A stretch of DNA of 64,000 nucleotides, from NCBI GenBank assembly GCA_028293565.1, contig JAQGON010000165.1:1011-65010 (forward strand). Reading direction: 5' to 3'. Positions 37,460 through 55,560 of the stretch are shown piece by piece. The notes beneath the pieces are model-generated. The model searched no databases and was not told the DNA's origin. It saw only the letters and a program-made list of their open reading frames with translations. A program made the translations under genes and the position numbers. Position 1 is the stretch's first letter. Every line of letters starts with the position of its first letter. This DNA comes from Verrucomicrobiota bacterium. Lineage in GTDB: Bacteria > Verrucomicrobiota > Verrucomicrobiia > Opitutales > Opitutaceae.

Positions 37460-38341
37460 TTGCCCCCCGCGCCCGACGCATTTTGCTGGTCGGTCCCACC
37501 CCTTCCCGCCGTGAAAACCGCCCGCCTTCATCGCCTGTTCAATCCGCGCACCGGCCGCTGCTTCGATGTCGCCATCGATCACGGCTTCTTCAACGAGGGC
37601 TCGTTCCTCGCCGGCATCGAGGATCTCCCGCGCGCGATCCAGATTCTCGCCGACGCGGCGCCCGACGCGATCCAGCTCACGGTGGGACAGGCCCCGCACC
37701 TGCAGCGGCTCGCGCGGCGCCCCAAGCCCGCGCTCGTGCTCCGCACCGACGTCGCCAACGTCTACGGCTCACAGCTGCCGCGCGCGCTGTTCTCGAGGAT
37801 CCTGGAGGATGCGGTGCTGCAGGCCGTGCGGCTCGACGCGGCCTGCGTCGTCGTGAATCTTTTCCGGATCCCGGACCAGCCCGAGGTCACCGACCAGTGC
37901 ATCCAGAATATCCTGCGGATGAAGCCGCAGTGCGACCACTACGGAATGCCGCTGATGATCGAGCCGCTCGTTTTCCAGCCGAACGCCAAGGCCGGCGGCT
38001 ACATGGTCGATGGCGACGCGGCCAAGATCACGCCGCTCGTCCGCCAGGCCGTCGAACTCGGCGCCGATATCATCAAGGCCGATCCCACCGACGACATCTC
38101 GATCTACCACCGGATCATCGAAACCGCCGGCGGCGTCCCGGTCCTCGTCCGGGGCGGAAGCAAGGCCCCGGAAAATGAAATCCTCGCCCGCACCGAGCAG
38201 CTCCTGAAACAGGGGGCGGCGGGAATCGTCTACGGACGCAACATCATCCAGCACCCGAGACCGGGCGCGATCACCCGCGCGCTGATGGCCGTGGTGCACG
38301 ACGGAGCCAGCGCCTCCGCCGCGATGAAGCATCTCGGATAA
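37460..38341 (+). CDS. Class I (DhnA/FbaB/LsrF-type) aldolase family protein
   Basis: 'RLHRLFNPRTGRCFDVAIDHG', 'IIKADPTDD', 'VLVRGGSK', 'GIVYGRNIIQH'. A GTG at 37511 is an alternative start. Confidence 0.82.
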   Translation: MPPAPDAFCWSVPPLPAVKTARLHRLFNPRTGRCFDVAIDHGFFNEGSFLAGIEDLPRAIQILADAAPDAIQLTVGQAPHLQRLARRPKPALVLRTDVANVYGSQLPRALFSRILEDAVLQAVRLDAACVVVNLFRIPDQPEVTDQCIQNILRMKPQCDHYGMPLMIEPLVFQPNAKAGGYMVDGDAAKITPLVRQAVELGADIIKADPTDDISIYHRIIETAGGVPVLVRGGSKAPENEILARTEQLLKQGAAGIVYGRNIIQHPRPGAITRALMAVVHDGASASAAMKHLG

Positions 38342-38347
38342 AATCCC

Positions 38348-39472
38348 ATGTCCCCTCCCGTCCGCATCGGCATCATCGGCGGCGGCCTCATGGGCCGCGA
38401 AGCCGCCAGCGCGCTCGCGCGGTGGTTCACGCTCGTGGATTTCCCCGTGCGCGCCGAGCTCACCGCCGTCTGCGACCTGCAGCCCGGCCTGCTCGACTGG
38501 TTCCGGCAGGTGCCGACGGTCAAGCACCTGGTCACGAATCATCGCGAGTTGCTCGCGCTCGCGGACGTCGACGTCGTTTACGCGGCGGTGCCCCATCACC
38601 TGCACGAGGAGATCTACCTCGACGTCCTCCGGGCCGGAAAGGACCTCCTGGCCGAGAAACCGTTCGGCATCGATCTCGCCGCGGCCCGCCGCGTGCGCGA
38701 CGAGGCCGGCCGTCTCGGGCGGTTCGTCCGCGTTTCCTCGGAGTTCCCGTTTCTTCCCGGCGTGCACCGCGCCTGGCAGCTGGCGGCCAGCGGGTCGCTC
38801 GGCCGGATCATCGAGGCGCGCTGTTCCTTCCTGCACTCGAGCGACCTCGATCCCCTGAAGCCGATCAACTGGAAGCGTCAGTCGAAGTACTGCGGCGAGA
38901 TCGGCGTCATGGGCGACCTGGGCATGCACGTCGCGCACGTGCCGCTGCGCCTCGGCTGGAAGCCGACGACGGTTTTCGCGCAGCTTCAGAAAATCTACAC
39001 GACGCGCCCGGACGGAAAAGGCGGCATGGCGGCCTGCGACACCTGGGACAACGCCATGCTGCACTGCAGCGCGCAGATCGCGGGCCACGCGACGCCGCTG
39101 ACGCTCGAGATGAAACGGCTCGCGCCGACGGAGACCAACACCTGGATCATCGAGGTGCTCGGCACCGACCGCGGCGTGCGGTTTTCGACCAAGGAGCCCA
39201 AGACGTTCTGGACCTACCGGCGCGACAAGGAGCAGTGGTGGGAGAAAACCGACCTGGGCTTCGGCACGCCGTTCAAGACGATCACGGGCGCGATCTTCGA
39301 GCCCGGCTTCCCGGACATCCTCCAGCAGATGTGGGCGGCATTCCTCGCCGAGCGCGCCGGCGTGCTCGGCGTCCGGTTCGGCTGCGCCACTCCGGACGAG
39401 GCCGTGGCCCACCACGAAATCTTTGCCGCCGCCCTGAAATCGCACCAGGAGCAAAAAGCGGTCGCGCCCTAG
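38348..39472 (+). CDS. Gfo/Idh/MocA family oxidoreductase
   Basis: Rossmann start 'VRIGIIGGGLMGREAA' and 'LLAEKPFGIDLAAA'. Confidence 0.85.
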   Translation: MSPPVRIGIIGGGLMGREAASALARWFTLVDFPVRAELTAVCDLQPGLLDWFRQVPTVKHLVTNHRELLALADVDVVYAAVPHHLHEEIYLDVLRAGKDLLAEKPFGIDLAAARRVRDEAGRLGRFVRVSSEFPFLPGVHRAWQLAASGSLGRIIEARCSFLHSSDLDPLKPINWKRQSKYCGEIGVMGDLGMHVAHVPLRLGWKPTTVFAQLQKIYTTRPDGKGGMAACDTWDNAMLHCSAQIAGHATPLTLEMKRLAPTETNTWIIEVLGTDRGVRFSTKEPKTFWTYRRDKEQWWEKTDLGFGTPFKTITGAIFEPGFPDILQQMWAAFLAERAGVLGVRFGCATPDEAVAHHEIFAAALKSHQEQKAVAP

Positions 39473-39479
39473 ACTCCCG

Positions 39480-40487
39480 ATGCGCTCTGGAATCATCGCC
39501 GGCGGAAACTGGATCACCGATCACGTCAAGGTCATCGACCACTGGCCCGCGGAGGACAGCCTCGCCACCGTGCTTTCGCTGACCCTGGGCAACGGGGGCG
39601 GCCCGTACAATGTGCTCAAGGATCTCGCGCGGATGGGCGCATCGTTCCCGCTCGCGGGAATCGGGCTCGTGGGGGACGACGCGGACGGCCGGAGAATTCT
39701 GGACGACTGCCGCGCCCATCGCATCGACACCGCGCAGTTGCGGATGACCGGCGGGCGTCCCACGAGCTACACCGACGTGATGAGCGTGCAGGCGACCGGG
39801 CACCGCACGTTTTTTCACGACCACGGGGCGAACGCGCTGCTGGCGCCGCATCATTTCGATTTCGCCGGCACGTCCGCGCGGCGCTTCCACCTTGCCTACC
39901 TGCTGCTGCTCGACGTCCTCGATGCGCCGGGCGAGGACGGACGGCCGCGCGCGGTCGACGTCCTGCGGCGCGCGCGGCAGGCGGGGCTCAAGACTTCGCT
40001 CGACTGCGTGAGCGCCGGAGGCGAACGGCAGCGTGCGCTCGTCATGCCGGTCCTCCCCGAGGTCGACGTTTTTTTCAGCAACGACTACGAGGCGGAACAG
40101 GTGACCGGGCTGACGCTGGGACGGGGCGACACCCTCGACCGCGCGGCCGTCGAACGGGCGGCGGCCTCGTTCGTGAAATCCGGGGTGCGCGACTGGGCGC
40201 TGATCCATTTCCCCGAGGCCGCGTGCGCGTGTTCGTCCGCGGGCGAGGTGTTGTGGCAGCCCAGCGTGCGGATGCCCGCCGCGGAAATCCGCGGCACCGC
40301 CGGCGCGGGCGACGCGTTTGCCGCGGGGGTCCTGTTTGGTCTGCACGAGGAGTGGCCGATGACGCGCTGCCTCGAACTCGGCGCCTGCACCGCCGCCGCC
40401 TCGCTGCGCCAGCCGACCTGCTCCGATTCAGTCGTTCCGGTGGACGACTGCCTCGCCCTCGGCCGCCAGTTTGGTTTTCGGGACTAA
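39480..40487 (+). CDS. PfkB-family carbohydrate kinase
   Basis: C-terminal 'IRGTAGAGDAFAAGVLFGL' PfkB signature. 8-nt gap to the upstream gene. Confidence 0.85.
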   Translation: MRSGIIAGGNWITDHVKVIDHWPAEDSLATVLSLTLGNGGGPYNVLKDLARMGASFPLAGIGLVGDDADGRRILDDCRAHRIDTAQLRMTGGRPTSYTDVMSVQATGHRTFFHDHGANALLAPHHFDFAGTSARRFHLAYLLLLDVLDAPGEDGRPRAVDVLRRARQAGLKTSLDCVSAGGERQRALVMPVLPEVDVFFSNDYEAEQVTGLTLGRGDTLDRAAVERAAASFVKSGVRDWALIHFPEAACACSSAGEVLWQPSVRMPAAEIRGTAGAGDAFAAGVLFGLHEEWPMTRCLELGACTAAASLRQPTCSDSVVPVDDCLALGRQFGFRD

Positions 40488-40655
40488 ATTCTCCAACGAG
40501 GAATTCCGAGGGGAGGTTGGCCGCAAGAATGCGCAAGGGCTCCCAGGCTGCGAAGGAGCTGCCATCGCGCCCATAGGCGCACAAGAGATTCGATCCGGAG
40601 CCACCGAGCCCTTGTGCTTTTTTGCGGCCAACCCTTTCCGAACCCGAGTTTCGCC
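40488..40655. repeat. MITE-like palindromic element, family 3, copy B
   Basis: Same termini and core as 12618-12795, in the same orientation. Confidence 0.7.
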
Positions 40656-40672: not shown

Positions 40673-41527
40673 CTATCTCAGCTTCTTCAACCGCGCGGCG
40701 ACATCCGCGCGCAGACGGTCGATGGCGCCGAGCGCGAACTCCTGCACGTCCAGTTTCTCGTCGATCACCAATGGCGTGAGGTCCATCGCCCACGCGATCG
40801 AGGTGAACTGGTCGGTCGCGTGCGAGGTGTGGAACGTGGCGTTCGCCGCGCGACGCCCGAGGGCCGCGACGTCGTAGCGTTTCCCCCCCGCGACCTGGGA
40901 GTCGAAAATCCGGATCAGTTCGCCGGCCAGCTCGGGATGGGCGCTGGCGTCCAACGGCACCTTTTCGTCGTCGCCGAGCCAGTCGAGACCGCGCCAGGCC
41001 TCGACCCCGAGGACGCGCCGGGGACGCCTCGCGGGTTCGAGCGACCGGATCGCCTCGAGGCATCGCAGCAGCACGGCGACGTGCGTGTCGTGCTTGTCGA
41101 CCGGCTGGTGCAGGTAAACCACCTCCGGCCGGCAGGCACCGAAAAGGAGCCGAAGATCGGCCAGCACGTCGGGATGCCCCCGCTGTTTCAGGTCGGGGCT
41201 CGGGTGCGCGAGCTGGATCTGGAGGTTGTAGTTGCCGAGCCGAGCCGCGGCCCGCTGCTCCTCGCGCCGCACGGCCTGCATCTGCGCATCGGTGTGCGCC
41301 GCATACTTTCCACTGCGGGGCGAACCGGCTCCGTTCGTCGCCACGACGCCGGTGAAAAAACGGTCCGCGCGGCCGTAACATTCCGTCACCGCCGGATAGG
41401 CGTTGATCTCGATGTCGTCCTGGTGCGCGATCACGCACAGGTGCGTCGTCCGCGCCAGCGCAGCTTCGGGCGTCAGCCCGGCCGGAGCCGGAAGATAAAT
41501 GTCAGCCTCGGGGCGGGAGAATTTCAT
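40673..41527 (-). CDS. PIG-L/LmbE-family N-deacetylase
   Basis: 'HLCVIAHQDDIEIN' (AHPDDE-like) and 'VDKHDTHVAV' (HxDH-like). The ATG overlaps the upstream stop (ATGA). Confidence 0.78.
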   Translation of the reverse strand: MKFSRPEADIYLPAPAGLTPEAALARTTHLCVIAHQDDIEINAYPAVTECYGRADRFFTGVVATNGAGSPRSGKYAAHTDAQMQAVRREEQRAAARLGNYNLQIQLAHPSPDLKQRGHPDVLADLRLLFGACRPEVVYLHQPVDKHDTHVAVLLRCLEAIRSLEPARRPRRVLGVEAWRGLDWLGDDEKVPLDASAHPELAGELIRIFDSQVAGGKRYDVAALGRRAANATFHTSHATDQFTSIAWAMDLTPLVIDEKLDVQEFALGAIDRLRADVAARLKKLR

Positions 41528-42651
41528 GGGCGTCCGTGGGTTTCCGCGACGATCCGCGCCATTTCATCCTGCGCCTCCTCGAGGCTGCGCACGAGGGCGA
41601 ACTGCGTGCGGCAGCGCTCCAAGTTGTGGCGCGGGTGCCGGATTTTGTAATAGGTGTCGCCCTGCAGATAGTCCGTCAGGAACCGCATCCCGTTCTCGTA
41701 GGTCATCAGCTTCCCCGCAAAACCGAGCTCGGCGCGTTCGGCGTCGTTCAGGACGGCGCCGACCTCGGATCCGAGGTAACCCTCCACCAGCGCGCGATAC
41801 AGCGGGAGCTTCACGTGCATCCGGGAGGGATCCGGATCGTCCTCGAGCGTGGAACTCGCCGAGGTCCGCACCATCTCCCCGAAATCATACAGCGGAAGTC
41901 CGGGCATGATCGTGTCGAGATCGATCACCGCCACGGTGCGGCCGGTCGCGTCGTCGAGCATGACGTTGTTGATCTTCGTGTCGTTGTGCGTAACGCGCTC
42001 GCGGATTTCGCCGCGCCCGAGCATTCCGAGCAGCCGGTCGGCATCGGCCTCGCGCGCGAAGGCAAAGCCGATTTCCGCGCGCACCGCGCCGGCGCGGCCC
42101 GCGGGGTCGTCGCCGACCGCGCGGCGCAGCGTCTCAAAACGGCTTCGCGTGTGGTGAAAATTCGGAATCGTCTCATGCAGCCGCGCGCCCGGCAGGTCCG
42201 CCAGCTGCGCCTGGAATTTCCCGAAGGCCCGCGCGGCCGCCCGCGCCTGCGCCTCGTTCGTCACCCGATCCACCGTGTGCGCCCCCTCGATGAAATCGTA
42301 AACCCGCCAGTAGCCCCCCGCGGCATCCTGCGCGAACGCCGCGCCATCCCGCGCGGGCACGAGGGTGAGCGAGCGCCGCGCCGCCGCCGCGCCTTCCTCC
42401 GCCATCACCTTCGACGCGACATGCGCGGTCACGCGGCGCACGTTGTCCATCAGCGCTGGCACGTTCCTGAAAATGTGATGATTGACCTTCTGGAAAACAT
42501 AGCGGCGCCGGCCGCCAGACGCCTCGAAGGCGGCCTGGTAGGTCTCGTTGATGTGCCCGTTGCCGTGCGGGCCGGCCGAAACCAGGCGGCCTTCGAGGGG
42601 AAAGGCGGCGACCACCTCGGGGAAATCCGGCGGAACAGCGGGCTGACTCAT
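41524..42651 (-). CDS. N-acetylhexosamine 1-kinase (NahK/LnpB)-like anomeric sugar kinase
   Basis: 'GNGHINETY', 'VTHNDTKINNVMLDD', 'IDLDTIMPG', 'YDFGEMVR', 'ENGMRFLTDYLQGDTYY', 'HNLERCRTQFALV'. These follow the Bifidobacterium NahK layout as I recall it. Confidence 0.8.
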   Translation of the reverse strand: MSQPAVPPDFPEVVAAFPLEGRLVSAGPHGNGHINETYQAAFEASGGRRRYVFQKVNHHIFRNVPALMDNVRRVTAHVASKVMAEEGAAAARRSLTLVPARDGAAFAQDAAGGYWRVYDFIEGAHTVDRVTNEAQARAAARAFGKFQAQLADLPGARLHETIPNFHHTRSRFETLRRAVGDDPAGRAGAVRAEIGFAFAREADADRLLGMLGRGEIRERVTHNDTKINNVMLDDATGRTVAVIDLDTIMPGLPLYDFGEMVRTSASSTLEDDPDPSRMHVKLPLYRALVEGYLGSEVGAVLNDAERAELGFAGKLMTYENGMRFLTDYLQGDTYYKIRHPRHNLERCRTQFALVRSLEEAQDEMARIVAETHGRP

Positions 42652-45236
42652 GCGGGCGGCGCGATTTCAATGGTCAGCGCGCGCCCCGCGGCGAGCGTTT
42701 TCTCCGCCTTGAATTCCTTTTCGCCCAGACCCGTGAGCGCGAGGCGCCGGAGTTTCAATTGCCCGCCCGAGACGGACAACGTGACCTTCGTGCGGCGCCG
42801 GGTCGGGGTCAGCTCGACGCTTCCCCACGCCGTCCCGCTCGACCAGAACCAGCGGACATGCCGCGGGCTCGACGCAAACGTCAGCGATCCCGTGAGCGCG
42901 GAGAAATGGAATCCCGTCAGCGCCGCAATCAGGCCCCAGCTGCCCAGCGCGCGGACGTAATGGTGCCCGCACTCCGCCTCGTCGAAGGGGTTTCGCTTTC
43001 GCCCGTCGTAGCGCGCGCGAATATCCCGCACGACCTTGAGCGCATCGCGCACCATTCCCTCCTGCGCCAGGTGCAGGGCCACGCAGTATTCGAAGCCGGT
43101 CATCACCTCCGTGTAATACGGAAAGGGCCGCGCCGGCCGGCGCCCCCGCGGATACGACGCCATCAGCAGCGCGGTTTCGTCGCCGAGCACGAAGCTGCGC
43201 ATGTGGTTGAAATGCGCCTCGAAGCCGTGCCGGCGATTGTGCGCGAGCACTGCGCGCAACGCCTCGCGCTCGTGCACCGGGTCGAGAAGGTGGCCAAGCC
43301 CCTCGAAATGCGCGTTGACCTGCCCGGCGAGCTGGTCGATCAGGCAGCCTGCGGCCAGCTGGTAGTCGGGAGCGGCGGCATTTTTCAGCTCCGGGGTGTA
43401 CATCAGGCCGGGACGGACCCGATCCCAGCTGCCCGGAGGCCGGACCTCGTGCTCGTAGTAGTCGTCGTTGAATAGATGCGCGTCGACCCACGTCCGGCCG
43501 CGCTCGAACAGTTCGCGGCATTTCGCGGCGAAGTCCGTCTCGCCCACGGCCCGCGCCATCTCCTCCGCGGCGCGCAGCGCCCCCAGGTACCACGACGCCA
43601 TCTGCGGGTTCGGCCCGAAATATTCCACGTCCATCGTGTTGTGCTGCGCGCCTTCCATCACCCCGTCCTGGTCCGCATCCCAGCCGCCGGGCAGCCAGGC
43701 GAATTCGAGCGCCCGCCGCGCCCGCGGCCACAGCGTGCGCAGCCAGGCGGTGTCGCCGGACACCCGCCACTCGCGATGGAGCTTGAGCAGGCAGCCCATC
43801 TGGCCGTCGGCGGCCGCGATCAGCCCCTGCTCCGGGATCGGTCGCAGGGGCAGCGGCACGCGGAAGCTCATGTGGCCGTTGTCCTGCATGCTGTATCCGG
43901 AAAATTCCGTCTCGCGCATCGTGCGCGCCAGCTCGGGAAAAAGATTCGCCGTCGCGTGCTCGTAATTCCAGACGTGCGTGCAGTTGCCGTGACAGCTTCC
44001 CTGCCGGTCGAAACAACCCTCCCATCCGAAGAACCGCCCGTCCGCCGTGCGAAAGCAGGTCTGCGACCGGAGCGTCGAGAGATTGAACAGCGCCGCCTCC
44101 CGCACTTCCGCCGGCAGATCGCACTCCGCCACGCCGCGGGCGAACGCCACGGTCTCGCGCTCCAGCGCCGGCCGGTCCCGCGCGGCGCGCTCCGCCACCG
44201 CCCAGGCGTCGGGGAAGTCATTCGCGTAGTGGTTGCCGACAATCACCGGGACGTGCCCCGGACCATGCCCCCAGTTCTCCCGGTTCGGGAAATGCCACGC
44301 CATGATGAAGTCGACGCTCCGCTCGCCCATCGGCGGAACGTCGATCGCCACGGCAAGCGAGGCGTTGGGAGTGTCGGTGCGCGCCTCCCGCGGCTCCAGT
44401 TTTCCATCGCCGGAGAAATCGTCCCAAAAATCCAGCAGCGCATCGCTCCAGCCGAAGTCGGCCCAGGCGGTCCGATGCGTGACGCCGCGTTTCGCCGTCG
44501 TCGCGAGGGCCATCGTGCCCCACGCCGGATGCGTGCGCGCCACGCCCGTCGAGGCGAGCTCGACTCCCTGGATGACGCCCCCCTGGCGGAAGGCGTTGCG
44601 GTTGCCCGACGCGCCGGTGGGAAAATATTTCCCGCGAAACTCGTCAAGCTTCAGGCTGAAGCCGTCGACCCCGATGAAGTTCGGGAGCGTGGCGGCGACC
44701 GCGGCGCTGACCGGGGCGCGCGAGGGATTTCGCAGCACGACACGAACGAACGCGACCGGCAGGCTGCTGCGCGCCGCGTCGCCGGGAATCAGGGGATTGA
44801 AGACCTGCACCGTGGCGCGCACCGGCACGGCATCGTCGGCGAGGTCGATCTGCGCCAGCGGATACGCCGCGCGAAAGGTGCAGCGCCGGAACCGCGGCAG
44901 GCCCGCCTGCCGCGCCGCTGCGCCTTCCTCGCCCTCCCATTCCGTCACCGGCAGCGGTCCTTCCAGCAGCCGGGTCACCGGCGCCTCGCCGCGGCGCGCC
45001 GCGCGCACCGCGAAAAAGCCCGAGGCGCCTCCCTGGCCGGTGGGCGTGAAATTTTTCGCCGGACGATTCATCAGCTCCCAGTGGCGCCACGCGCCCCACC
45101 CCGTGAGCGAGACGGTCCCGGTCCCGACGCCTCCGACCGGAAGGGCGATCCGCGCGAGGTGGTCGTTGCTGTAGGATTTAAGAACCGGCCAGGAGGAAGG
45201 AGGGAGATTCACCGGGGGAATAAAGGGGTTAACCAC
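42648..45236 (-). CDS. GH116-family glycoside hydrolase (GBA2-like; beta-glucosidase / beta-N-acetylglucosaminidase family)
   Basis: N-terminal 'LPVGGVGTGTVSLTGWGAWRHWELMNRP' (GH116 N-domain) plus a large DUF608-like (alpha/alpha)6 C-terminal region. The start codon is GTG at 45236. Confidence 0.82.
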   Translation of the reverse strand: MVNPFIPPVNLPPSSWPVLKSYSNDHLARIALPVGGVGTGTVSLTGWGAWRHWELMNRPAKNFTPTGQGGASGFFAVRAARRGEAPVTRLLEGPLPVTEWEGEEGAAARQAGLPRFRRCTFRAAYPLAQIDLADDAVPVRATVQVFNPLIPGDAARSSLPVAFVRVVLRNPSRAPVSAAVAATLPNFIGVDGFSLKLDEFRGKYFPTGASGNRNAFRQGGVIQGVELASTGVARTHPAWGTMALATTAKRGVTHRTAWADFGWSDALLDFWDDFSGDGKLEPREARTDTPNASLAVAIDVPPMGERSVDFIMAWHFPNRENWGHGPGHVPVIVGNHYANDFPDAWAVAERAARDRPALERETVAFARGVAECDLPAEVREAALFNLSTLRSQTCFRTADGRFFGWEGCFDRQGSCHGNCTHVWNYEHATANLFPELARTMRETEFSGYSMQDNGHMSFRVPLPLRPIPEQGLIAAADGQMGCLLKLHREWRVSGDTAWLRTLWPRARRALEFAWLPGGWDADQDGVMEGAQHNTMDVEYFGPNPQMASWYLGALRAAEEMARAVGETDFAAKCRELFERGRTWVDAHLFNDDYYEHEVRPPGSWDRVRPGLMYTPELKNAAAPDYQLAAGCLIDQLAGQVNAHFEGLGHLLDPVHEREALRAVLAHNRRHGFEAHFNHMRSFVLGDETALLMASYPRGRRPARPFPYYTEVMTGFEYCVALHLAQEGMVRDALKVVRDIRARYDGRKRNPFDEAECGHHYVRALGSWGLIAALTGFHFSALTGSLTFASSPRHVRWFWSSGTAWGSVELTPTRRRTKVTLSVSGGQLKLRRLALTGLGEKEFKAEKTLAAGRALTIEIAPPA

Positions 45237-45296
45237 GAATTTCGCGGATTGTCACGGACGCGGAATTTATGTCGAAGTCGTCCAAGCGCACCCGAA

Positions 45297-45499
45297 CTTT
45301 TTTTCACCGCGAAGGACGCGAGGAACGCGAAGGTCAATCCATGGGGATCGGGCACAGAACCGGTTTGGCCTTCGTGCTCCTGGTGACCTTCGTGGTAAAA
45401 ATCATCCGGGCGCTTTTTGTTTTACCACGAAGGACACGGAGGTCACTCTATCCGGTGGATCGGCCTTCGCGGTCCTCGCGCCCTTTGCGGTGAAAAAAA
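45297..45499. repeat. Nested palindromic element, family 2 ('FTAKDARNAKV' type)
   Basis: Outer inverted repeat 'tttttttcaccgcgaaggacgcgaggaacgcgaagg' and 'ccttcgcggtcctcgcgccctttgcggtgaaaaaaa'. Inner inverted repeat 'ccttcgtggtaaaa' and 'ttttaccacgaagg'. Shares arms with the 33-kb tandem units. Confidence 0.65.
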
Positions 45500-45594
45500 T
45501 TTCGCGAAGAAGCGTCCGTCGGTGACACCGAAGTGTTCAAGCGAGGCTCCCTGTTTTTGTTTTTGACCCCACGCAATCAAACCCAGCCCGCCTG

Positions 45595-46521
45595 TCAGAA
45601 AAGTTTCGCGGGATATTTTCCCTGCTTCACCAGCTCGGCGATCGCCGCGACCACGCGCGGTTTGTCCTCGCGGTAGGTCACGCCGAACCACGCGCCCGCG
45701 GTCGGGAGGACCTTCACCACCGCCTCCCGGCGCGCAATCATTTCGGAGACCGCGGCCGGCAGGTAGAACTCGGCCTTCGGATCGCTTCCGCGCGTCCGCA
45801 AAAACTCCTGGAGCTGGCGGTCCAGCCCGGCAAAGAGCGCAGGCGTGAACCCCCAGCAGTTCATCGAAACGGTTTCCTGCCCGGTAAAGGTGCGGCCGGG
45901 CCCCACGTCGCCGGCGAGGATGCCGGTGCGCTCCGTGATCGATTCCAGCAGCCCGCCCGCGCCGGTGACACATTGTCCGCGCGCGACGGCGCCGTGCTCG
46001 GAAAGCGTGTTGGCCAAGGTGAAGCCGACCATCGCGAACTGCGCCGCCATCGAGCGCGGCGCGCGGTGGCCCGACATCGGATCGAACCCGCGCGGGCTGG
46101 CCGAGGGACTCGTCAGGAATTTCGCCAGCTGCGCGAACGAATCGGCGCCGTAGAAATCGTCGGCATTGATGACCGCGAACGGTTCCCGCACGGCCTCGCG
46201 CGCGCACCAGACCGCATGGCCGGTCCCGAGCGGCTTTTCCCTTCCGGGCGGCACGCCCAGCCCCGCCGGCAGCGCGTCGAGCGACTGGTAAACATAGCCG
46301 ACCGGGACTTTGGCGGCGTACTTCGCGGCGACCTGCTCCCGGAACAGCGCCTCAAAATCCCGGCGGATCACAAACACGACGCGTCCAAATCCGGCGCGCT
46401 GCGCATCGAACACCGCGTAATCGAGCACGGTTTCGCCCGAGGGGCCGACGGGGTCGATCTGTTTGAGCCCGCCGTAGCGCGAGCCCATTCCGGCCGCGAG
46501 AACAAGAAGCGTCGGTTGCAT
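45595..46521 (-). CDS. Sugar-phosphate nucleotidyltransferase (NTP_transferase fold)
   Basis: 'LLVLAAGMGSRYGGLKQIDPVGP' G-x-G-x-R-(x)n-K signature, 'GTGHAVWCA', 'VINADDFYG'. ATG at 46521. Confidence 0.8.
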   Translation of the reverse strand: MQPTLLVLAAGMGSRYGGLKQIDPVGPSGETVLDYAVFDAQRAGFGRVVFVIRRDFEALFREQVAAKYAAKVPVGYVYQSLDALPAGLGVPPGREKPLGTGHAVWCAREAVREPFAVINADDFYGADSFAQLAKFLTSPSASPRGFDPMSGHRAPRSMAAQFAMVGFTLANTLSEHGAVARGQCVTGAGGLLESITERTGILAGDVGPGRTFTGQETVSMNCWGFTPALFAGLDRQLQEFLRTRGSDPKAEFYLPAAVSEMIARREAVVKVLPTAGAWFGVTYREDKPRVVAAIAELVKQGKYPAKLF

Positions 46522-46567
46522 CCCCGCCGAGCAGAAATGATCACGTCCGCCGGCGCAATCCCCTGAG

Positions 46568-46767
46568 TGGCACGGGTCTCCGACCCGTGAAGGGGGGTTC
46601 GAGCGAAACGGTGAACGTCTTTTTCGCGGACGGGCTCCGTCATACAGGCGCTTCGCCACGGGGGTGCTCCGCGACAGGCACCCTCACTCGTGAATGTCGG
46701 GTCGAGCGAAACGGTGGACGTCTTTTCGCGGACGGGCTCCGCCTCACGGGTCGGAGACCCGTGCCAC
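46568..46767. repeat. Hairpin-ended element (family 1 termini) with an internal ~45-nt direct repeat
   Basis: Termini 'gtggcacgggtctccgacccgtga' and 'tcacgggtcggagacccgtgccac'. Internal 'ttcgagcgaaacggtg.acgtctttt.cgcggacgggctccg' occurs twice. Confidence 0.7.
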
Positions 46768-46768
46768 G

Positions 46769-46795
46769 AAAAAGGCGGGGGCTTTCGCCCCCGCC
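46769..46795 (-). terminator. Rho-independent terminator of the TonB-dependent receptor gene
   Basis: On the minus strand: GGCGGGGGC-GAAA-GCCCCCGCC followed by TTTTT, 22 nt after the stop at 46817. Confidence 0.7.
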
Positions 46796-46816
46796 GATCC
46801 TCAACCTGACAAAATC

Positions 46817-49800
46817 CTAGAATCTCAACGTCGTCGTCAGCGACCAGTTCGTCGTCGGCGCCAGGATTCCGCTCGTGCCGCCGTCGATGTATTTCTTGTC
46901 GAAAATATTATCGACGACCAGCTGGGTGATCACCTTGTAGCCCGAGATCTCGAAGGGATACGCCAGGTTGCCGTTGAAGACCACGAAGTTGCCAGCCGTG
47001 AGGCCGCCGAGGTCGGGGTTCCAGTCGACACTCCGCGAGATGTTGGTCTCGGAGGAGTAGCGTCCGCCGAAACCGATCGAGAGGCCGCGGAGGAAGGTGT
47101 CGGTCAGGGTGTATTTCCCGAAGAAATTCACCCGGTATTCCGGCACGTTCTCGATGCGGTTGTTGAAATAAATATCATGGTTGATATTCGTCGCCGCCAC
47201 CGAGGGATCCGAGATCGTCTTGGCCGTCCAGTACCACGACGCGTTGGCGAGGAGCTGGAAGTTCCGCATCGGCGTCCAGATCGTCTCGGCCTCCGTGCCC
47301 TCGACGCGGTTGTGCGCCACCGAGCGCCAGCGCAAGGTGCGCGAGCCCGCCGCGACGCCCGCGAGGTTGCCGTAGTTGAACGGCTCCGTCGCCTGATGCT
47401 GGAAGTCCTCGACGAGCTGGTTGTTCCGGTCGGCCCGGAAGAGCGAGAAGGTCGCCACCAGGCGATCGTCCCAGAGGGCGAGCTTGGCGCCGATCTCGAT
47501 GTTCTTGCCGACTTCATTCGGCGCCTGCGTGCCGGCGCCCTCGTGGTTCAGGGCCGCCAGCGCGTCCGCCACCGAGGTGATGGTGGTCGATCCGCCGTTG
47601 TAATACTTGTAGTTGAACGAGCCCCCGTTCGCCGCGAGCACGGTGTTCACGAGCGTCTGAAAGTTCGTGTCCGTCGCGTCGAGGTGGTAAAGGAAGCCGC
47701 CCAGCGGCGTGAGGCTGTTGAACCGGAAGGTCTGGCTGACCGACGTGTAGACGTTGATGCCCTTCTTCACTTCAAACGAGGCGCCACCCATGTAGGAGTT
47801 GCCCGTCTGGGTGAGGAAGTTGGTCGAGGCATAGCTGGGCGAATAGTTGTACGCGCCCGGCGGATAGGTCGTCTGGTCGGCGAACGCATACGGCGGCGGC
47901 GAGAACCAGGGGAAATTCGCCGTCAGCGCCTGGCCGGCCTGGCGGTACGTTTCCTGACGGAAGCCGCCGAGCAGCGTGAGCCGGTCGCTGAAGGCGCTGC
48001 CGCTGTAATTGACATACCAGGCGTTGTACTGCGCCGGATACCCGTCGATCGGATTGGACCAGCCCGGATTGAGCTTGTTTTCGTCCGGCTGGACCTGGAA
48101 TCCCGGATCCCAGTTCGCGTAGACCTGCTGCGCCGACAGGATGTTGCCGTTGCGATCCCGGATGTACTGCCCGACTGGCACCATGTTCGTCTCGTTGCCG
48201 GGAGTGAGGCTGGTGCCCGGATTGACCGCCGGATAGTTGTAGCCGGGGATCAGATGATAATCCGGCGTGCCCTGGTTCTGCAGCGTCAGATATTGCTGGC
48301 GGAGATTCTGCAGGAGGTAACCGACGAGGAGCTTGTTCTTGACGCCGAAGGCATCGAGCTTGAAGACCGCGTCGAGCTGGTGCGTGCGCGTCTTGCGGAA
48401 ATAGCCCGCGCCGTTGTAGCCGCTGGCGGCGTTGAACGTCGTGCCGTCGGCGTTGGGCACGTTGTTGCCCTCCTGGTCCGTGAACGTCGTGTTGTCCTGG
48501 GTCAGCGCATAACGCACCGAGAGCCATTCGAACGGAGTCATGTCGACGCCGAACGTCGAGGTCGTCTGCTCGTTGTCGTCGAACGACCCGCGGTTCATGT
48601 AATTGAACCCTTCGTCATGGATCCGGTTTCCGTTCTTGTCCGTGTAATACGCGCCGCGCTGGATCGACGTGTAGGTCGGGAGATAATTGTTCCCGGCCGA
48701 TTTGCGGAGGTCCGCCTGGTAGTTGGCGACGGACGTCTGGATGCGCGTGCGGTAGGCGGCCACCGACGCGGGATTGGCCGGGTCGAGACCCGCGGCCGTC
48801 ATGAGCGCGGCGCTCGGCGATTGATAGGCGGCGAACCAGCCGGAGGGATAGATCCAGTCGCCGAGATTCTCGTTGTACTTCTCCTTCAGGTAAATCGTGT
48901 TGGCGGTGATCTTCAGCTTTCCGTTGGCGAACGGGTCCAGCACGATCGAGGGCGTGAAGTCGAAGCGCTTGGTGAACTCAAAGGCGCGGTCGCCCTTGCT
49001 GTTCTCCCAGCCGGTGACGACCCGCAGCGCCGCCTTGTCGGAGAGCACGTGGTTTTCGTCGATCAGCCCGCGGTTCGTGTTGTCGGAACCGAAGGTGTAG
49101 CTGATCTCGCTGGGGAGCTTGCCGAGGCTGGCGGTCTTCGTGACGAAGTTGATCACGCCGCCGGGATAGCCTTCGCCGAAGAAGACTGCGGCCGGGCCCT
49201 TGATGATTTCCACGCGGTCGGTGTTGTCGGCCTGGTACTTGGTGGAATACATCAGCAGGCCGTCGCGCAGGATGATGTTCACCGGGAAGCCGCGGATGGT
49301 GAAGGTGCCCTGCGGAGTGGCGTTGTTGGACGGCCGGTTCGTGTTGAACTTCGGATCGCCGGAAGTGCCGGGCGTGAAGCCCAGGATGTCCGTGAGGCTG
49401 CGCATCCCGGTGTCACGGATGAAGTCGGAGCTCACCACTGAAACGGCCATCGGGATTTTCTGGATCTCCATGCCGATCCGGGTGGCGGTCGCCGAGTTGG
49501 TCCGGAGGTAGCCGTTGTCCCGCTCGCTCACGACCTGGAACGGGGACAGGGCTTCGACCCCGGCGTCCGTCGGCAGCGCATTCGCCGCCGGTGCGGGCGC
49601 GGGCGCCGCCACGGGAACAACCGTGGGCGTCGCCGGCGCGTTGGAACCTTCGTAGTGCGAGAGTCGCTCGCGCAGGGCGGCAACCTCGTCATGGAGTTTC
49701 TGGATTTCCTCCGCGGTTTCCGCGCGAAGGGTTGGGACAGAGACCGCGGCCATGGCCGCGAGGCACGCCATCAGCCGCGCGCCCGTCTGGAGTCTTGGGT

Positions 49801-49819
49801 AACTGGAATCGGATTTCAT
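46817..49819 (-). CDS. TonB-dependent outer-membrane receptor
   Basis: Signal peptide, plug 'LSPFQVVSERDNGYLRTNSATATRIGMEIQKIPMAVSVVS', large barrel and a terminal '...TTTLRF'. ATG at 49819. Confidence 0.9.
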   Translation of the reverse strand: MKSDSSYPRLQTGARLMACLAAMAAVSVPTLRAETAEEIQKLHDEVAALRERLSHYEGSNAPATPTVVPVAAPAPAPAANALPTDAGVEALSPFQVVSERDNGYLRTNSATATRIGMEIQKIPMAVSVVSSDFIRDTGMRSLTDILGFTPGTSGDPKFNTNRPSNNATPQGTFTIRGFPVNIILRDGLLMYSTKYQADNTDRVEIIKGPAAVFFGEGYPGGVINFVTKTASLGKLPSEISYTFGSDNTNRGLIDENHVLSDKAALRVVTGWENSKGDRAFEFTKRFDFTPSIVLDPFANGKLKITANTIYLKEKYNENLGDWIYPSGWFAAYQSPSAALMTAAGLDPANPASVAAYRTRIQTSVANYQADLRKSAGNNYLPTYTSIQRGAYYTDKNGNRIHDEGFNYMNRGSFDDNEQTTSTFGVDMTPFEWLSVRYALTQDNTTFTDQEGNNVPNADGTTFNAASGYNGAGYFRKTRTHQLDAVFKLDAFGVKNKLLVGYLLQNLRQQYLTLQNQGTPDYHLIPGYNYPAVNPGTSLTPGNETNMVPVGQYIRDRNGNILSAQQVYANWDPGFQVQPDENKLNPGWSNPIDGYPAQYNAWYVNYSGSAFSDRLTLLGGFRQETYRQAGQALTANFPWFSPPPYAFADQTTYPPGAYNYSPSYASTNFLTQTGNSYMGGASFEVKKGINVYTSVSQTFRFNSLTPLGGFLYHLDATDTNFQTLVNTVLAANGGSFNYKYYNGGSTTITSVADALAALNHEGAGTQAPNEVGKNIEIGAKLALWDDRLVATFSLFRADRNNQLVEDFQHQATEPFNYGNLAGVAAGSRTLRWRSVAHNRVEGTEAETIWTPMRNFQLLANASWYWTAKTISDPSVAATNINHDIYFNNRIENVPEYRVNFFGKYTLTDTFLRGLSIGFGGRYSSETNISRSVDWNPDLGGLTAGNFVVFNGNLAYPFEISGYKVITQLVVDNIFDKKYIDGGTSGILAPTTNWSLTTTLRF

Positions 49820-50136: not shown

Positions 50137-50949
50137 CTAAGTACAACTCGCGGGAACAAGCGGTTTCTCCGCCGCCGGAGCCGGCAGCGGCTCAAGGCCC
50201 GCGCCGAACGCGGCGCCGCCATGGACCCTGGGAATCACGCCGTGATGGCCGATCCGCACGACGCCCAGGCGCACCGCTTCGCGGACGAGCTTGGCGCTCG
50301 TCGAGATTCCGAGCTTCCGCATGATGTTGCGCCGATGGGTCTGCACCGTGGACGCCGACAGCCCGAGACGCCCGGCCCCTTCCTCGTTGTCGCTGCCGTC
50401 CCCGATCACGCTCAGCACATGGATCTCCGCCGCGGTCAGACGCCGGCTGAGCGCCGTTTCCGGCGGACGATCCAGGAGCTCGGGCCGCAGCCCCGCGCTG
50501 ATGTAGCCTCGTCCTTCGGCGACGGCCCGCAGCGCCCGGCTCATCGCCTCGAGGCCCTCGGACGAGGCGTCGATGAATCCGTCAAACCGCGCCGTGCGCA
50601 GGACCAGCAGCGAATATTCGTCGCGGCGCGGCGAGTCGACGAGCACCCGCCGGGCCAGCCGCTCGTGCGCGATCGGCTCGAGCAGATCGAGTCCGTCGAC
50701 ATCGGGAAACGCCAAGCCCATCACCAGCAGGTCCGCCGGCTCGGCCCGCAAGGCGCTCAATGCCTCCCCGCCGCGGCCGTAAACCTCGACCGTCGCCTCC
50801 GTGAAGACCTGCTGGCACACCACCCCGAGCGCCTCCGCATACAGTTTCATCGGCTTGGCGATGACCACCCGGCGCACCGGATCGTGGGCGCGAGGACTTG
50901 GCGGAGCGAAGGGAGAATCGGAAAGCGGACGCAGCGGCGGAGAGTCCAT
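50137..50949 (-). CDS. LuxR/FixJ-type regulator with a degenerate (pseudo-)receiver domain
   Basis: C-terminal HTH 'LTAAEIHVLSVIGDGSDNEEGAGRLGLSASTVQTHRRNIMRKLG'. The receiver-like N-terminus lacks the acidic pocket: 'VVIAKPM' in place of DD, 'LLVMGLAFPDVDG' in place of the phospho-Asp. Confidence 0.78.
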   Translation of the reverse strand: MDSPPLRPLSDSPFAPPSPRAHDPVRRVVIAKPMKLYAEALGVVCQQVFTEATVEVYGRGGEALSALRAEPADLLVMGLAFPDVDGLDLLEPIAHERLARRVLVDSPRRDEYSLLVLRTARFDGFIDASSEGLEAMSRALRAVAEGRGYISAGLRPELLDRPPETALSRRLTAAEIHVLSVIGDGSDNEEGAGRLGLSASTVQTHRRNIMRKLGISTSAKLVREAVRLGVVRIGHHGVIPRVHGGAAFGAGLEPLPAPAAEKPLVPASCT

Positions 50950-51161
50950 GTGAGACAGCTGGGCGGTGGAAGAGATTCGCACCGCGAGGGTTCCCGCAGC
51001 GCTTGAGGCCGTGTGACGGCGCGCCGCCACTTCGGTTTCATCCCGGCTTACCTAATAATTTCCAAAAAACTCCGGCACAAACGGACATTTTCGAAACCCA
51101 CCCTCAACGCCGCTTGGGAAATAATTGCAGCCCGGGCGCCCGTCGCCGAGATTCCGGCGCG

Positions 51162-54100
51162 ATGCTGCCGCTCAACCCTCTCCTTCAGCTCACGCCCCTT
51201 CGCGTCCAGCGCGGCGTCCTCCGTCTTGTCGAGCTGATCTGGCATGATCCCCAGCCGATCCGCGTCGAAGCCGCCGCCGCGCGACGCGATCACGTCCCGC
51301 TCGCAGCCGCGCAAAAATTTCCCCGGCAGGTGCTGCGCGACGGCGAGCCCTGGGGCCGGCTCTATGACCAGCGCTGGTGCCGCCTGGCGATTCCTCCGCG
51401 GGGGAACCGCTGGCTCCGCTGGGACGAACAGGGCGAGGCCACGCTTTTCATCGACGGCGTGCCGTTCTACGGATTCGACGTGGCGCACCGCACGTGCGAG
51501 CTGCCCGCCGGGACGCGCGAGGCCTGGATCGAAAGCCTCTGCGTCCAGGCGGCGATCTGGCATCCCGACGCGAAGGGCCTGTCCGCGGAGGGAAACCTGT
51601 TCCGCGGCGCGCAGTTGCTGCGCCGCGACGACGAGGCCTGGGCGGCGTACCACGACCTGAACTGTCTCTACGAATGGATGCTCGAGCTGCGGATGCGGGA
51701 GCATCCGGGCGTCCCGCGCGACCTGCACAGCATGTCGCAGCAGCCTCCGCTCACGGACGTGTCGCCCCTGTACCGGCGCCTGCTCCGCGGACTCGATGCC
51801 GCGCTCGACGCCTTCGATGTTTCCGGCGTCTCCGCGCTGCGACGCGCGCTCGCCGGCGTCTACCGTGAAATGCGCGATGACCATCCGTTCAGCCGCGCGG
51901 TGCTCACCGGCCATTCCCATCTCGACCTGGTGTGGCTCTGGACCGAACAGGTCGGCGAGGGCAAGGCCGTGCACACGTTCGCCAACGTGAACCGGCTCAT
52001 GGCGCTCTATCCCGAATTCCGCTTCGCGTACTCGCAGCCCGCCAGCTACGAAGCGGTGCAGCGCCGGTCGCCGGAACTCCACCGCGCGGTGCGCGCCCGC
52101 CTGCGCTCGGGCCGGTGGGAGGCCACGGGCGGCATGTATGTCGAGAGCGACTCCCACGTCGCCTGCGGCGAGGGCCTGGCGCGGTCGTTCATCCTCGGGC
52201 AGGAATCGTTCGCGCGGCTCACGGGCCGCCGGTCGCGCTCCCTCTGGCTGCCGGACCTCTTCGGGTTCAGCGCGTGCCTGCCGCAGCTGATGCGCCTGAG
52301 CGGCGTCGATTATTTCTTCACGACCAAGACGACGTGGAACACCGTCAACCGCTTCCCCCACTCCAGCTTCGTGTGGCGCGGGCCGGGCGGACACGCGGTC
52401 GTCAGCCACGTGACGCAGGGCGTGCAGTTCAACAACACGGTGTCGGTCGAACAGCTCCGCGCCGCCTCGCACCAGCACCAGCAGGGCGACCTGCACCGCG
52501 AATTTCTCATGCCGAACGGCTGGGGCGACGGCGGCGGGGGACCCAGCGAGGAGATGTGCGAACGGGCGCGACGCCTTTCCCGCCTCCGCGGCCTCCCCGA
52601 GCTGGAATGGGGCCAGCCCGAGGCGTTCTTCGACCGCCTCGCGGCGAAGCGCGCGCAGCTTCCGGCCCTCGATGGCGAAATCTACCTCGAATACCACCGC
52701 GGCACGTTCACCACGCAGAGCCAGGTGAAGGCCCGCTTCCGCGCGCTCGAGCGCGCCCTGCAGCTGCGCGAGGCGGCGACGGTCGTCATGCGCGGCACGC
52801 CCGGCGACGATCTCGCGCACGCGTGGCGCCGCATGGTGTTCGCCCAGTTTCACGATTATATTCCCGGCAGCTCGATTCCGGAAGTGTACGTCACGGGACT
52901 GCCCGAACTCGCGAAGCTCGCTCAGGAGCAAACCGCCGCGGCGCTGGATTCCCTCGGCGCCCCTGCCGCCGCAGCGGGATCGCCGGCGGTGGAATGCCTC
53001 TTCAACCCTCTCCCGCTGAGCCGCCGCTGCGTCGTTGAAGGCCGCGCGTACGATTTGCCGCCCCTGGCCGGCGCGGCCCTCGCCGGAGCGTTCGTTGCGA
53101 CCGAGCCGGTGACGGTGAGATCGCGCACGCTGACGAATGGACGCGTGGAGGCGCGCGTCGACCGGAACGGATATCTTGCGTCGCTGAGCGTCGACGGGCG
53201 GCGGGTCGAGCTGGCGGACCGCGCGGGCGAACTGGTGGTTTATCCGGAGCAGCCGGCCAATTTCGGCCCGTGGGACATCGACCGGCACTCGCTTTCGCTC
53301 GGGGAACCGTTGCGCGGCGCGGCGAGGATCAGCGCCGGCTCCGCGGGAATTTCGGTGCGCCGCACTTTCGGCGCGCGGAGTTCGGCGACGGTGCGCTACT
53401 GGCTGCAGCCCGGCGAGGGCGTGCTTCGCTTGTCGGTCGCGCTCGACTGGCACGAGCCGGATGTGATGGTGAAGCTCCACTTTCCGACCAGTTACCGCGG
53501 ACGCGAGGTGCGCTGCGGAACGCCGTTCGGCAGCGTGCTGCGCCCGCAGCTCGCAACGTGCCGCGAGGCCGAGGCGATGTGGGAGTGGCCGATGAGCCGC
53601 TGGGCGACCGTGAGCGCGGATGCCGAACGCGCGGGGTTGTTCATCGTCACCGAGGCAAAGTACGGGCTGAACTGCCGCGACGGAAATCTCGGCCTGACCC
53701 TCATCCGCACGCAGAAGCACGTTGGATACGAAGACCACGCCCGCGCCTATCCCGCGGCGCTCAGCCGCCTGCCGAAACCCGGGACGGTGTTCACCGACCT
53801 CGGCGAGCACGCGATCGAGCTCGCGCTCGGTTTCTATGACGCCACCGCCCCCCGCGCGGAGCAGCCGGCGGCGCTCGCCGAGACGCTTTTCACGCCGCCG
53901 GTCGAATACCGCGGTCGTCCCGTGTCGTCGGCCTGGGAAGGGATCGAGGGCGGCGAAACCCTGGTCCCGCATTGGGCGCGGCCGATCGGCCGCAACCGCT
54001 GGGTGCTTCGGCTGCACGAAGTCAGCGGACAGCGTGGTTCCGCGCGAATCCGGATCGCGAAAGGCTGGACCGCCCGGAAGGTGAACCTCCTTGGAGAACC

Positions 54101-54295: not shown

Positions 54296-54392
54296 GAGGC
54301 GGACCCGCCGGATCTGAACGTTCATATCTTTTCTCTAGAGGCGCGCGAAAGGTTGCGCGTAATCTGACCGCGCGTTTTTTCGCACAAACTCC

Positions 54393-55463: not shown

Positions 55464-55560
55464 ATCCCAAGGTGAAAACCCGAGACCCGAAATAATTTCC
55501 CAACCTCGGAATCCGTCCTTTCGAATTCCGGATTTTCCCCTTCGGATTTCCTCCGCCCCG

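Follow-up and report, generated by a model that had tools for sequence, protein, structure and literature searches.

Which pathway would bring together a NahK-like anomeric sugar kinase, a sugar-1-phosphate nucleotidyltransferase (NTase), a glycosidase of family GH116 and a deacetylase of the PIG-L type is the question raised by a locus in a stretch of 64,000 nt (the window) from a Verrucomicrobiota bacterium of the Opitutaceae. The window has a G+C content of 67%, its nearest relatives are metagenome-assembled genomes (MAGs) of the Opitutaceae/Opitutae within the Verrucomicrobiota, and the source genome comprises 4.16 Mb and is 99.6% complete. A sequence-only reading of the locus had proposed that a beta-linked N-acetylhexosamine (HexNAc) glycoside is imported, trimmed, deacetylated and fed directly into an NDP-sugar pool. 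The explanation that we found best, and in which we have moderate confidence, is a locus resembling polysaccharide utilization loci of an Opitutaceae subclade, in which a HexNAc module of kinase, NTase and deacetylase is combined with an exchangeable front end, here a GH116 enzyme acting on an imported beta-glycoside. What is new is the GH116-bearing variant of anomeric-kinase/NTase salvage, which is carried by soil and freshwater Opitutaceae. The combination had been thought to be undescribed, and the literature search indeed yielded no paper on it.

The locus and the proposed pathway

The five genes named in the sequence-only reading are all encoded on the minus strand. Codon-position G+C and Pfam matches indicated a single colinear minus-strand block that extends from a LuxR-type gene to the PIG-L gene. 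It contains the following features:

50137..51030, minus strand: LuxR-type response-regulator-like gene, the first of the block (GerE and a weak Response_reg match)
46817..49819, minus strand: TonB-dependent receptor (Plug domain PF07715 at 9e-15; signal-peptide-like N-terminus)
46774..46795, minus strand: intrinsic terminator right after the receptor stop codon (9 G-C pairs, 4-nt loop, TTTTT)
46568..46767, no strand assigned: hairpin-ended repeat element of about 200 nt with inverted arms, in the gap between receptor and NTase
45595..46521, minus strand: sugar-1-phosphate NTase of the 3pnn family, 308 aa (PDB 3pnn, 1e-89)
45293..45504, no strand assigned: nested palindromic dispersed repeat in the gap between NTase and GH116 (49-nt arms, 88% complementary)
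42648..45236, minus strand: GH116 subfamily 4, predicted cytoplasmic retaining beta-glycosidase, 862 aa (PF12215 and PF04685)
41524..42651, minus strand: NahK-like anomeric sugar kinase with APH fold, 375 aa (PF01636; NahK structures)
40673..41527, minus strand: predicted zinc deacetylase of the PIG-L/LmbE fold, 284 aa (PF02585)

In the proposed pathway, the LuxR-type regulator and the TonB-dependent receptor would provide regulation and uptake across the outer membrane, and GH116 would cleave an imported small beta-glycoside in the cytoplasm and pass the released sugar to the module. The NahK-type kinase would phosphorylate a free HexNAc (GlcNAc or GalNAc) at C1. The 3pnn-family NTase would then form the UDP-sugar from the sugar-1-phosphate and UTP, in the place that GalT has in the bifidobacterial GNB/LNB route. 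PIG-L would remove the N-acetyl group from a GlcNAc derivative and thereby open a branch to GlcN phosphate and NagB. From homology and gene context we infer HexNAc as the kinase substrate and UTP as the co-substrate of the NTase, and for this pathway we also infer the substrate of PIG-L and the sugar removed by GH116. As the nearest characterised GH116 relative acts on beta-D-arabinofuranosides, it is more likely that HexNAc serves as the aglycone or arises as a co-product than that it occupies the -1 subsite.

The kinase and the nucleotidyltransferase

The kinase matched the NahK structures from B. longum and B. infantis (4wh1, 4ocj) over its full length (1.4e-79; residues 14-370 against residues 12-353 of 4wh1). 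Its VTHNDTKINN and IDLDT blocks are identical to and in register with the blocks around D208 and D228 of NahK, which we take to be the catalytic base (HxDxxxxN) and the Mg-binding DxD, respectively. The C-terminal GMRFL.DYL block is shared with NahK, and the sugar-side blocks closely resemble their NahK counterparts.

For the NTase, the true start codon is the ATG at 46521 (MQPTLLVLAAGMGSRYGGLKQ), and the long open reading frame (ORF) 45595-46659 is too long. An ORF in another frame (45443-46207, 254 aa) was considered as the NTase gene, had no family match and was discarded in favor of the frame 45595-46521. A nucleotide-binding motif, G-x-G-S-R...K, is found at the start of the protein. The Pfam matches were weak (NTP_transf_3 and NTP_transferase); the match to PDB entry 3pnn, a structural-genomics structure from P. 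gingivalis, reached 1.3e-89, and GalU enzymes were distant (4e-10). No MurNAc-1-phosphate uridylyltransferase was among the PDB matches with E<=0.1, which consisted of 3pnn, GalU-type enzymes and chance matches. The more than 8000 homologues of the NTase carry generic names only, and no NCBIfam model fits the NTase, the kinase, GH116 or PIG-L.

Gene neighbourhoods were compared for the best kinase homologues, which are encoded at 80 genome loci. The NTase gene lies directly upstream of the kinase gene in 27 of the 80 loci, which belong to about eight phyla (Verrucomicrobiota, Acidobacteriota, Armatimonadota, Chloroflexota, Lentisphaerota, Hydrogenedentota, Planctomycetota and Bacillota). Intervening genes part the NTase from the kinase in another seven loci, all of which belong to the Opitutaceae/Opitutus group, and an additional locus of an unclassified MAG has the two genes at a distance of about 0.9 kb. 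The 122 immediate neighbours of the kinase homologues included, according to Pfam, 13 NTP_transferase proteins, seven GalE-type epimerases, three GH112 lacto-N-biose phosphorylases and two GalK proteins. These partners argue for a Leloir-like UDP-sugar route as the context of the kinase family, which leads from HexNAc via HexNAc-1-phosphate to UDP-HexNAc. The salvage logic that had been proposed for the pair of NahK-like kinase and NTase is thus borne out by the gene neighbourhoods. In the window, the inserted GH116 gene parts the two genes, which otherwise occur in an adjacency like that of AmgK/MurU. Taken together, the NTase-kinase module probably turns free N-acetylhexosamines into UDP-sugars.

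In one locus from a Eubacteriales MAG (L051:1216-3597; L-numbers label the related loci that were compared with the window locus), the gene immediately upstream of the NahK homologue belongs to GH172/DUF2961 (E 3e-89). GH172 is a family of alpha-D-arabinofuranosidases and alpha-D-fructofuranosidases. This single locus is a second, independent link of a furanosidase family to this kinase family.

In comparison with the bifidobacterial GNB/LNB route (GH112 LnpA, NahK, GalT-type LnpC and GalE), the kinase is a clear NahK homologue, and the logic would be the same, i.e., a HexNAc from a disaccharide is phosphorylated at the anomeric carbon and enters the UDP-sugar pool. The GH112, GalE and GalK neighbours elsewhere in the kinase family add to the likeness. 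In contrast to the bifidobacterial route, a pyrophosphorylase-type NTase of the 3pnn family is present instead of a GalT-type transferase, the GH116 hydrolase has the place of the GH112 phosphorylase, PIG-L is an additional component, and a TonB-dependent receptor would mediate uptake instead of a dedicated ABC system. Neither GH112 nor GalT was detected with Pfam in the window locus; a GalT gene is present on another contig.

In the AmgK/MurU systems of Pseudomonas and Tannerella, an adjacent APH-fold anomeric kinase and NTP-transferase-fold uridylyltransferase make a UDP-amino-sugar from free MurNAc/GlcNAc (PMC10941766, PMC7670621). The pairing of kinase and NTase is the same, but the kinase of the window is far closer to NahK than to other solved APH enzymes, its NTase is placed outside the MurU family by the PDB matches (3pnn and GalU), and no peptidoglycan-recycling genes are found near the operon. 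A third system is GalY (Amuc_0031), an NTP_transferase that is predicted as a substitute for GalT in gut Bacteroidetes and Akkermansia and is often clustered with galE (PMC5583593). The idea of a pyrophosphorylase-type NTase in place of GalT in a Leloir-like route is shared, but the genome analyzed here has its own GalT and GalK, and the NTase is therefore not needed for galactose. A function of the NTase as a replacement of GalT was rejected on this ground.

The NTase-kinase(-PIG-L) module is found in at least eight phyla, in environmental as well as gut bacteria, and is without a characterised member in the literature found. No paper was retrieved that joins NahK with GH116, names 3PNN as a protein or gives the sugar-contact residues of NahK. 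The 3pnn family is represented by a structural-genomics structure with unassigned function. Defining the module would establish a pyrophosphorylase-type branch in HexNAc metabolism, and it would improve the annotation of thousands of genes that are now named 'NTP transferase domain protein' or 'aminoglycoside phosphotransferase'.

The GH116 enzyme

GH116 was recognized by two Pfam models with scores above the cut-offs (PF12215, 176.5 bits, 1e-51; PF04685, 100.9 bits, 1e-28), in accordance with a two-domain protein of an N-terminal beta-sandwich and an (alpha/alpha)6 catalytic domain. It has no signal peptide and is the sole GH116 of the genome. The best solved match was ExoMA2 (8ic6; 8.2e-128), and the matches to TxGH116 and human GBA2 were 1e-14 or weaker. 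In the alignment, in which the chain numbering is 4 ahead of the paper numbering, the nucleophile Glu431 of ExoMA2 corresponds to E406 (GWEGCFD), the acid/base Asp557 to D536 (NTMDVEY), His446 to H421 (CTHVWNY) and Arg483 to R459 (SFRVP). His446 and Arg483 stand in for Asp452 and His507 of the beta-glucosidase TxGH116, and ExoMA2, an exo-beta-D-arabinofuranosidase, is the only characterised member of GH116 subfamily 4 (PMC10509167). Judged by these residues and matches, the GH116 of the window is a member of subfamily 4.

The enzyme thus shares with ExoMA2 of Microbacterium arabinogalactanolyticum (PDB 8ic6/8ic7; PMC10509167) the two domains, the catalytic residues and the equivalents of His446 and Arg483, and both are intracellular, in the case of the window by prediction. 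The gene contexts are different: ExoMA2 belongs to a D-arabinan locus with GH183, GH172 and an ABC importer, whereas the window enzyme has amino-sugar partners, no GH183 is present in the genome and no GH172 is found nearby.

A tree was calculated from 91 subfamily-4 sequences, which did not include ExoMA2. The 15 GH116s that are linked to the kinase form one clade with a support of 100 and a stem branch of 0.46, and according to the tree GH116 was recruited into the operon once. The motifs of the catalytic center are invariant over the 91 sequences; the invariance of THVWN was forced by the retrieval pattern and is uninformative. The linked copies differ from those in other contexts at 20 fixed positions, all outside the catalytic motifs, and a clade-specific change of the active site was therefore discarded.

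The family survey covered 121 genomes from 63 genera, and GH116 orthologues were defined by at least 70% identity. Such orthologues were found in 9 of the 121 genomes, from about four genera, and in all nine the kinase gene abuts the GH116 gene, which shows that the adjacency is not due to chance. The kinase is present in 43 of the 121 genomes, and GH116 in 9 of these 43. The co-occurrence of the genes, which had been named as a check on the pathway, was verified beyond the pair, as at least 15 related genomes share the order of the four genes. A cultured carrier is probably Horticoccus luteus, two proteins of which (P0171, P0073) are 70-76% identical to window proteins; a cultured carrier would make the questions testable.

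Neither kinase nor NTase nor PIG-L is ever a neighbour of the 76 GH116 relatives found in other phyla (45-56% identity). Their neighbours include ABC permeases, Asparaginase_2 (in Chloroflexota), sulfatases, SusD, GH29, GH95 and GH129. Subfamily 4 is common in glycan loci of Planctomycetota, Chloroflexota and Bacteroidota and has one known enzyme, and the operon offers a handle on it.

Two side observations concern GH116. In eight Chloroflexota loci (L110, L111, L118, L123, L126, L128, L134 and L135; ~6100-11600) the gene is flanked by a sugar ABC importer (SBP_bac_1 and two permeases) on one side and Asparaginase_2 on the other, an arrangement that hints at a glycosyl-asparagine or glycopeptide substrate. 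In one kinase-linked orthologue (G080:C111:37923-40472) an in-frame TAA was found, which may indicate a pseudogene or a sequencing error.

The PIG-L deacetylase

The third enzyme of the module was identified by PF02585 (47.6 bits versus a cut-off of 28.2, E 3e-12). The motifs AHQDD (A34-H35-Q36-D37-D38) and HDTH (H146/H149) are invariant in 13 orthologues. The predicted model has a pLDDT of 90.6, and its nearest folds are BC1534, BshB, archaeal diacetylchitobiose deacetylases, LnmX and MshB, at 14-21% sequence identity. The Foldseek probability was 1.00 for BC1534, BshB, Dac, MshB and the teicoplanin deacetylases. BshB/BC1534, MshB and diacetylchitobiose deacetylase all deacetylate GlcNAc conjugates. 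The window protein has the same fold as these enzymes, including the archaeal one of family CE14, and the same His-Asp-His motifs of the metal site. It differs from the LmbE deacetylases by its low identity (14-20%; TM 0.55-0.65), by AHQDD instead of AHPDD and by a C-terminal extension of about 130 aa. It represents a separate LmbE subfamily, which no NCBIfam model fits.

PIG-L adjoins the kinase or lies near it in 16 loci, and the orthologue travels with the kinase in Opitutaceae, Kiritimatiellia and Lentisphaerae. In L012 (11981-14790), a fusion protein of NagB-like (Glucosamine_iso) and PIG-L parts is encoded beside the PIG-L orthologue. In L043 (1218-3581), the orthologue is fused to a domain of about 490 aa without a Pfam match, which resembles ROK/ASKHA proteins by weak matches and motifs only and is free-standing in L033 (12446-13921), L029 and L060. 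These NagB-like and ROK-like links support a role in amino-sugar metabolism. A cryptic GH116-like domain was considered for the ~490-aa protein that adjoins PIG-L in Lentisphaerae and Kiritimatiellia, and this idea was dropped because no similarity was found. Likewise, a role of PIG-L as replacement of NagA was ruled out, as the genome has NagA-like and NagB genes. The genome also holds four other PIG-L paralogues.

To our knowledge, the known PIG-L enzymes (MshB, BshB and the eponymous PIG-L) all act on alpha-linked GlcNAc-O-R. This preference, together with BshB and BC1534 as nearest folds, would fit a deacetylase for GlcNAc-alpha-1-phosphate or UDP-GlcNAc, a tentative idea that we regard as unlikely on balance. 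If it is true, the kinase, the NTase, PIG-L and, in loci that have one, GalE would together constitute a full catabolic route for HexNAc that bypasses NagA and a GlcNAc phosphomutase. The route would lead from HexNAc via HexNAc-1-phosphate to UDP-HexNAc, which is interconverted with UDP-GlcNAc, and further via GlcNAc-1-phosphate and GlcN-1-phosphate to GlcN-6-phosphate (by GlmM) and fructose-6-phosphate (by NagB). Lineage-specific front ends would feed it, GH116 in the window and an M28 peptidase with an FAD oxidoreductase elsewhere.

Operon structure and a proposed exchangeable slot

Both ATGA overlaps that had been reported are present in the sequence, one between GH116 and the kinase ('...cgcATGAgtc...' at 42651-42648) and one between the kinase and PIG-L ('...cccATGAaat...' at 41527-41524). 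GH116, kinase and PIG-L are translationally coupled. Also in agreement with the sequence-only reading, the NTase and the TonB receptor lie upstream on the same strand, each followed by a repeat element. The gap of 358 nt between NTase and GH116 holds the 212-nt nested palindrome, which has at least six near-full copies in the genome (80-88% identity) and dozens of solo arms and is a dispersed MITE/REP-like repeat. In relatives, the spacing between NTase and GH116 is only about 0-260 nt, which argues that the ancestral unit was a four-gene operon, NTase-GH116-kinase-PIG-L, and that the repeat was inserted later. The ~200-nt element between receptor and NTase has arms (46567-46595 and 46739-46767) that are 93% complementary and contains a duplicated unit. 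Because of the strong terminator after its stop codon, the receptor is probably transcribed separately, although it is syntenic with the operon.

The receptor starts with the ATG at 49819, which is followed by a signal-peptide-like N-terminus (MKSDSS...LRA/ET). It had partial matches to FhuA-type receptors, the NCBIfam matches span the N-terminal third only, and no Pfam barrel model matched. Receptors of 35-63% identity are found upstream of the NTase in L084, L090, L092-L094, L097 and L098. The complete order LuxR-receptor-NTase-GH116-kinase-PIG-L recurs in L092 and L094, where LuxR and receptor are colinear with the operon at only 35-53% identity.

The position of GH116 is not always occupied by this gene. 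In three loci from Opitutae (L008:3575-8554, L010:1805-8478 and L014:5922-11203), an M28 peptidase and a PF12831 FAD oxidoreductase are found instead, and in L007 the frame of NTase and kinase-PIG-L is kept and the GH116 position is empty. These variants fit an exchangeable front-end slot.

Several results weigh against the proposed pathway. The only characterised subfamily-4 enzyme is specific for beta-D-arabinofuranosides (PMC10509167), and the residues that distinguish it are kept here. The active-site motifs are the same in the kinase-linked GH116s and in the 76 copies in unrelated contexts, and we see no hint of an amino-sugar substrate in the GH116 sequence. GH116 is lacking from most NTase-kinase-PIG-L loci, and most subfamily-4 GH116s lack such neighbours. 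The genome also has NagA-like, NagB, GalT and GalK genes, and thus the module is not required to fill a gap. A dispersed repeat now lies between NTase and GH116 and a terminator between receptor and NTase, and the operon itself has no gene for an inner-membrane transporter. Of the import, trimming, deacetylation and salvage that the sequence-only reading had envisaged, the salvage logic was retained on the evidence of the adjacency of kinase and NTase, and the amino-sugar theme on that of the NagB-like and ROK-like links of PIG-L. The part that was not retained is GH116 as the enzyme that trims HexNAc or GlcN, given the ExoMA2 residues and the relatives in other phyla that never lie beside kinase, NTase or PIG-L.

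Alternative explanations

The pairing of GH116 with an LmbE-type deacetylase had been likened to the archaeal chitobiose route. In this case, PIG-L would deacetylate an imported beta-HexNAc disaccharide such as chitobiose, GH116 would be an exo-beta-glucosaminidase/beta-N-acetylglucosaminidase, and GlcNAc would be converted to UDP-GlcNAc by kinase and NTase. The translational coupling of GH116, kinase and PIG-L is consistent with this route, the PIG-L model superposes on the Pyrococcus diacetylchitobiose deacetylases (TM 0.55-0.61), and SSO3039 of GH116 subfamily 2 is an archaeal beta-glucosidase/beta-GlcNAcase (PMC10509167). However, the window enzyme belongs to subfamily 4, it matched ExoMA2 with 8e-128 and TxGH116 with 1e-14, it has retained His and Arg at the positions of the glucose-binding residues Asp452 and His507 in TxGH116, and no solved archaeal GH116 was among its matches. 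The fold match of PIG-L to Dac is no better than that to BshB/BC1534, at 14-16% identity, and GH18 was not detected in the genome, which is 99.6% complete. In addition, the archaeal glucosaminidase GlmA is a GH35 and not a GH116 enzyme. The archaeal comparison is thus not supported for GH116, and we regard such a route as distinctly unlikely.

About equally doubtful is a route for N-glycan cores or glycopeptides, in which, after trimming by GH38, GH116 would take the last beta-linked residue off a Man/Xyl-GlcNAc core or a glycosyl-asparagine, and kinase and NTase would salvage the GlcNAc. A GH38 alpha-mannosidase gene is a neighbour of the operon in the window and adjoins the NTase gene in L085, on the same strand, and in L087/L001 and L088, in divergent orientation. 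This adjacency is confined to close relatives. A sugar ABC importer precedes the GH116 orthologue of Chloroflexota, and Asparaginase_2, which was found in 7 of 126 neighbours, follows it, but Asparaginase_2 also covers isoaspartyl peptidases. The M28 peptidase in the GH116 slot of the Opitutae variants and the ABC cassette with a family-5 binding protein 8 kb away would suit glycopeptides; on the other side, such an activity is not known for subfamily 4, and no GH18 endo-beta-N-acetylglucosaminidase is present in the genome.

The best solved match of GH116 and its conserved signature residues could also be taken to mean that it is an enzyme of the ExoMA2 type, which would liberate beta-D-arabinofuranose (or the stereochemically related alpha-L-fucofuranose or alpha-L-galactofuranose). 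Kinase and NTase would then form an NDP-sugar, by analogy with Fkp or the trypanosomatid arabinose/fucose kinase-pyrophosphorylase. In Bacteroidota, subfamily-4 GH116 genes have sulfatases and GH29/GH95 fucosidases as neighbours. A single GH172 gene is present in the genome, and in the unrelated Eubacteriales MAG (L051) GH172 lies directly upstream of the NahK homologue. We nevertheless consider a furanoside route highly unlikely. It would leave PIG-L without a role, the sugar-side blocks of the kinase are near those of NahK, and the repeated partners of the kinase family, GalE, GH112 and GalK, are hexose/HexNAc enzymes. The link of GH172 to the kinase is one locus, and GH172 neighbours none of the 91 GH116 loci, in which it was the only D-arabinan family searched, with the genome's own GH172 as query. 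ExoMA2 differs from the kinase-linked clade at catalytic-flanking positions (N424S, M535Y, D752N and H758N), and the genome has no GH183 endo-D-arabinanase. A D-arabinan locus was rejected for the latter reason and because the single GH172 is on other contigs and not near any GH116 locus. The GH172 gene is split over two contig ends (G000:C142:4383-4880 and G000:C195:11915-12292).

Lastly, it is very improbable that GH116 came to lie in a HexNAc salvage operon by accident and is only co-transcribed, acting on an unrelated glycoside. In favor of this reading, no more than 9 of the 43 kinase-bearing family genomes have GH116, the slot between NTase and kinase takes unrelated genes and the GH116 sequence has no evident feature that ties it to amino sugars. 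Against it, the adjacency is kept in nine of nine genomes from about four genera, down to about 70% protein identity and with overlapping stop and start codons, and the long stem of the linked clade (0.46) suggests adaptation after recruitment.

Neighbouring genes

The operon is flanked by further sugar-related genes:

51100..54176, plus strand: GH38 alpha-mannosidase, a recurrent neighbour with uncertain start (GH38 N-terminal, middle and C-terminal domains)
40515..40633, no strand assigned: inverted repeat between the convergent ends of the PIG-L and PfkB genes (38-nt arms, 82% complementary)
37460..40487, plus strand: trio of DeoC-type aldolase, Gfo/Idh/MocA oxidoreductase and PfkB kinase, convergent with the operon (Pfam)

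Beyond the LuxR end of the block, GH38 is followed by more sugar enzymes and by the ABC cassette with a family-5 binding protein, which is about 8 kb from the operon. About 300 residues of the GH38 ORF (50865-54176) precede any Pfam domain, and in its upstream part the ORF overlaps with the LuxR gene, which is encoded on the opposite strand. The DeoC, Gfo/Idh/MocA and PfkB genes are also found downstream of PIG-L in L003, L004, L084, L091 and L093. The two flanks, 37460-40487 and 54363-56457, together encode a DeoC-type aldolase, two Gfo/Idh/MocA oxidoreductases, a PfkB kinase and a xylose-isomerase-like TIM barrel, which we take to be the families of the inositol-catabolism proteins IolJ (IolJ-like), IolG, IolC and IolE/IolI. 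In L007, a KduI/IolB gene directly follows PIG-L.

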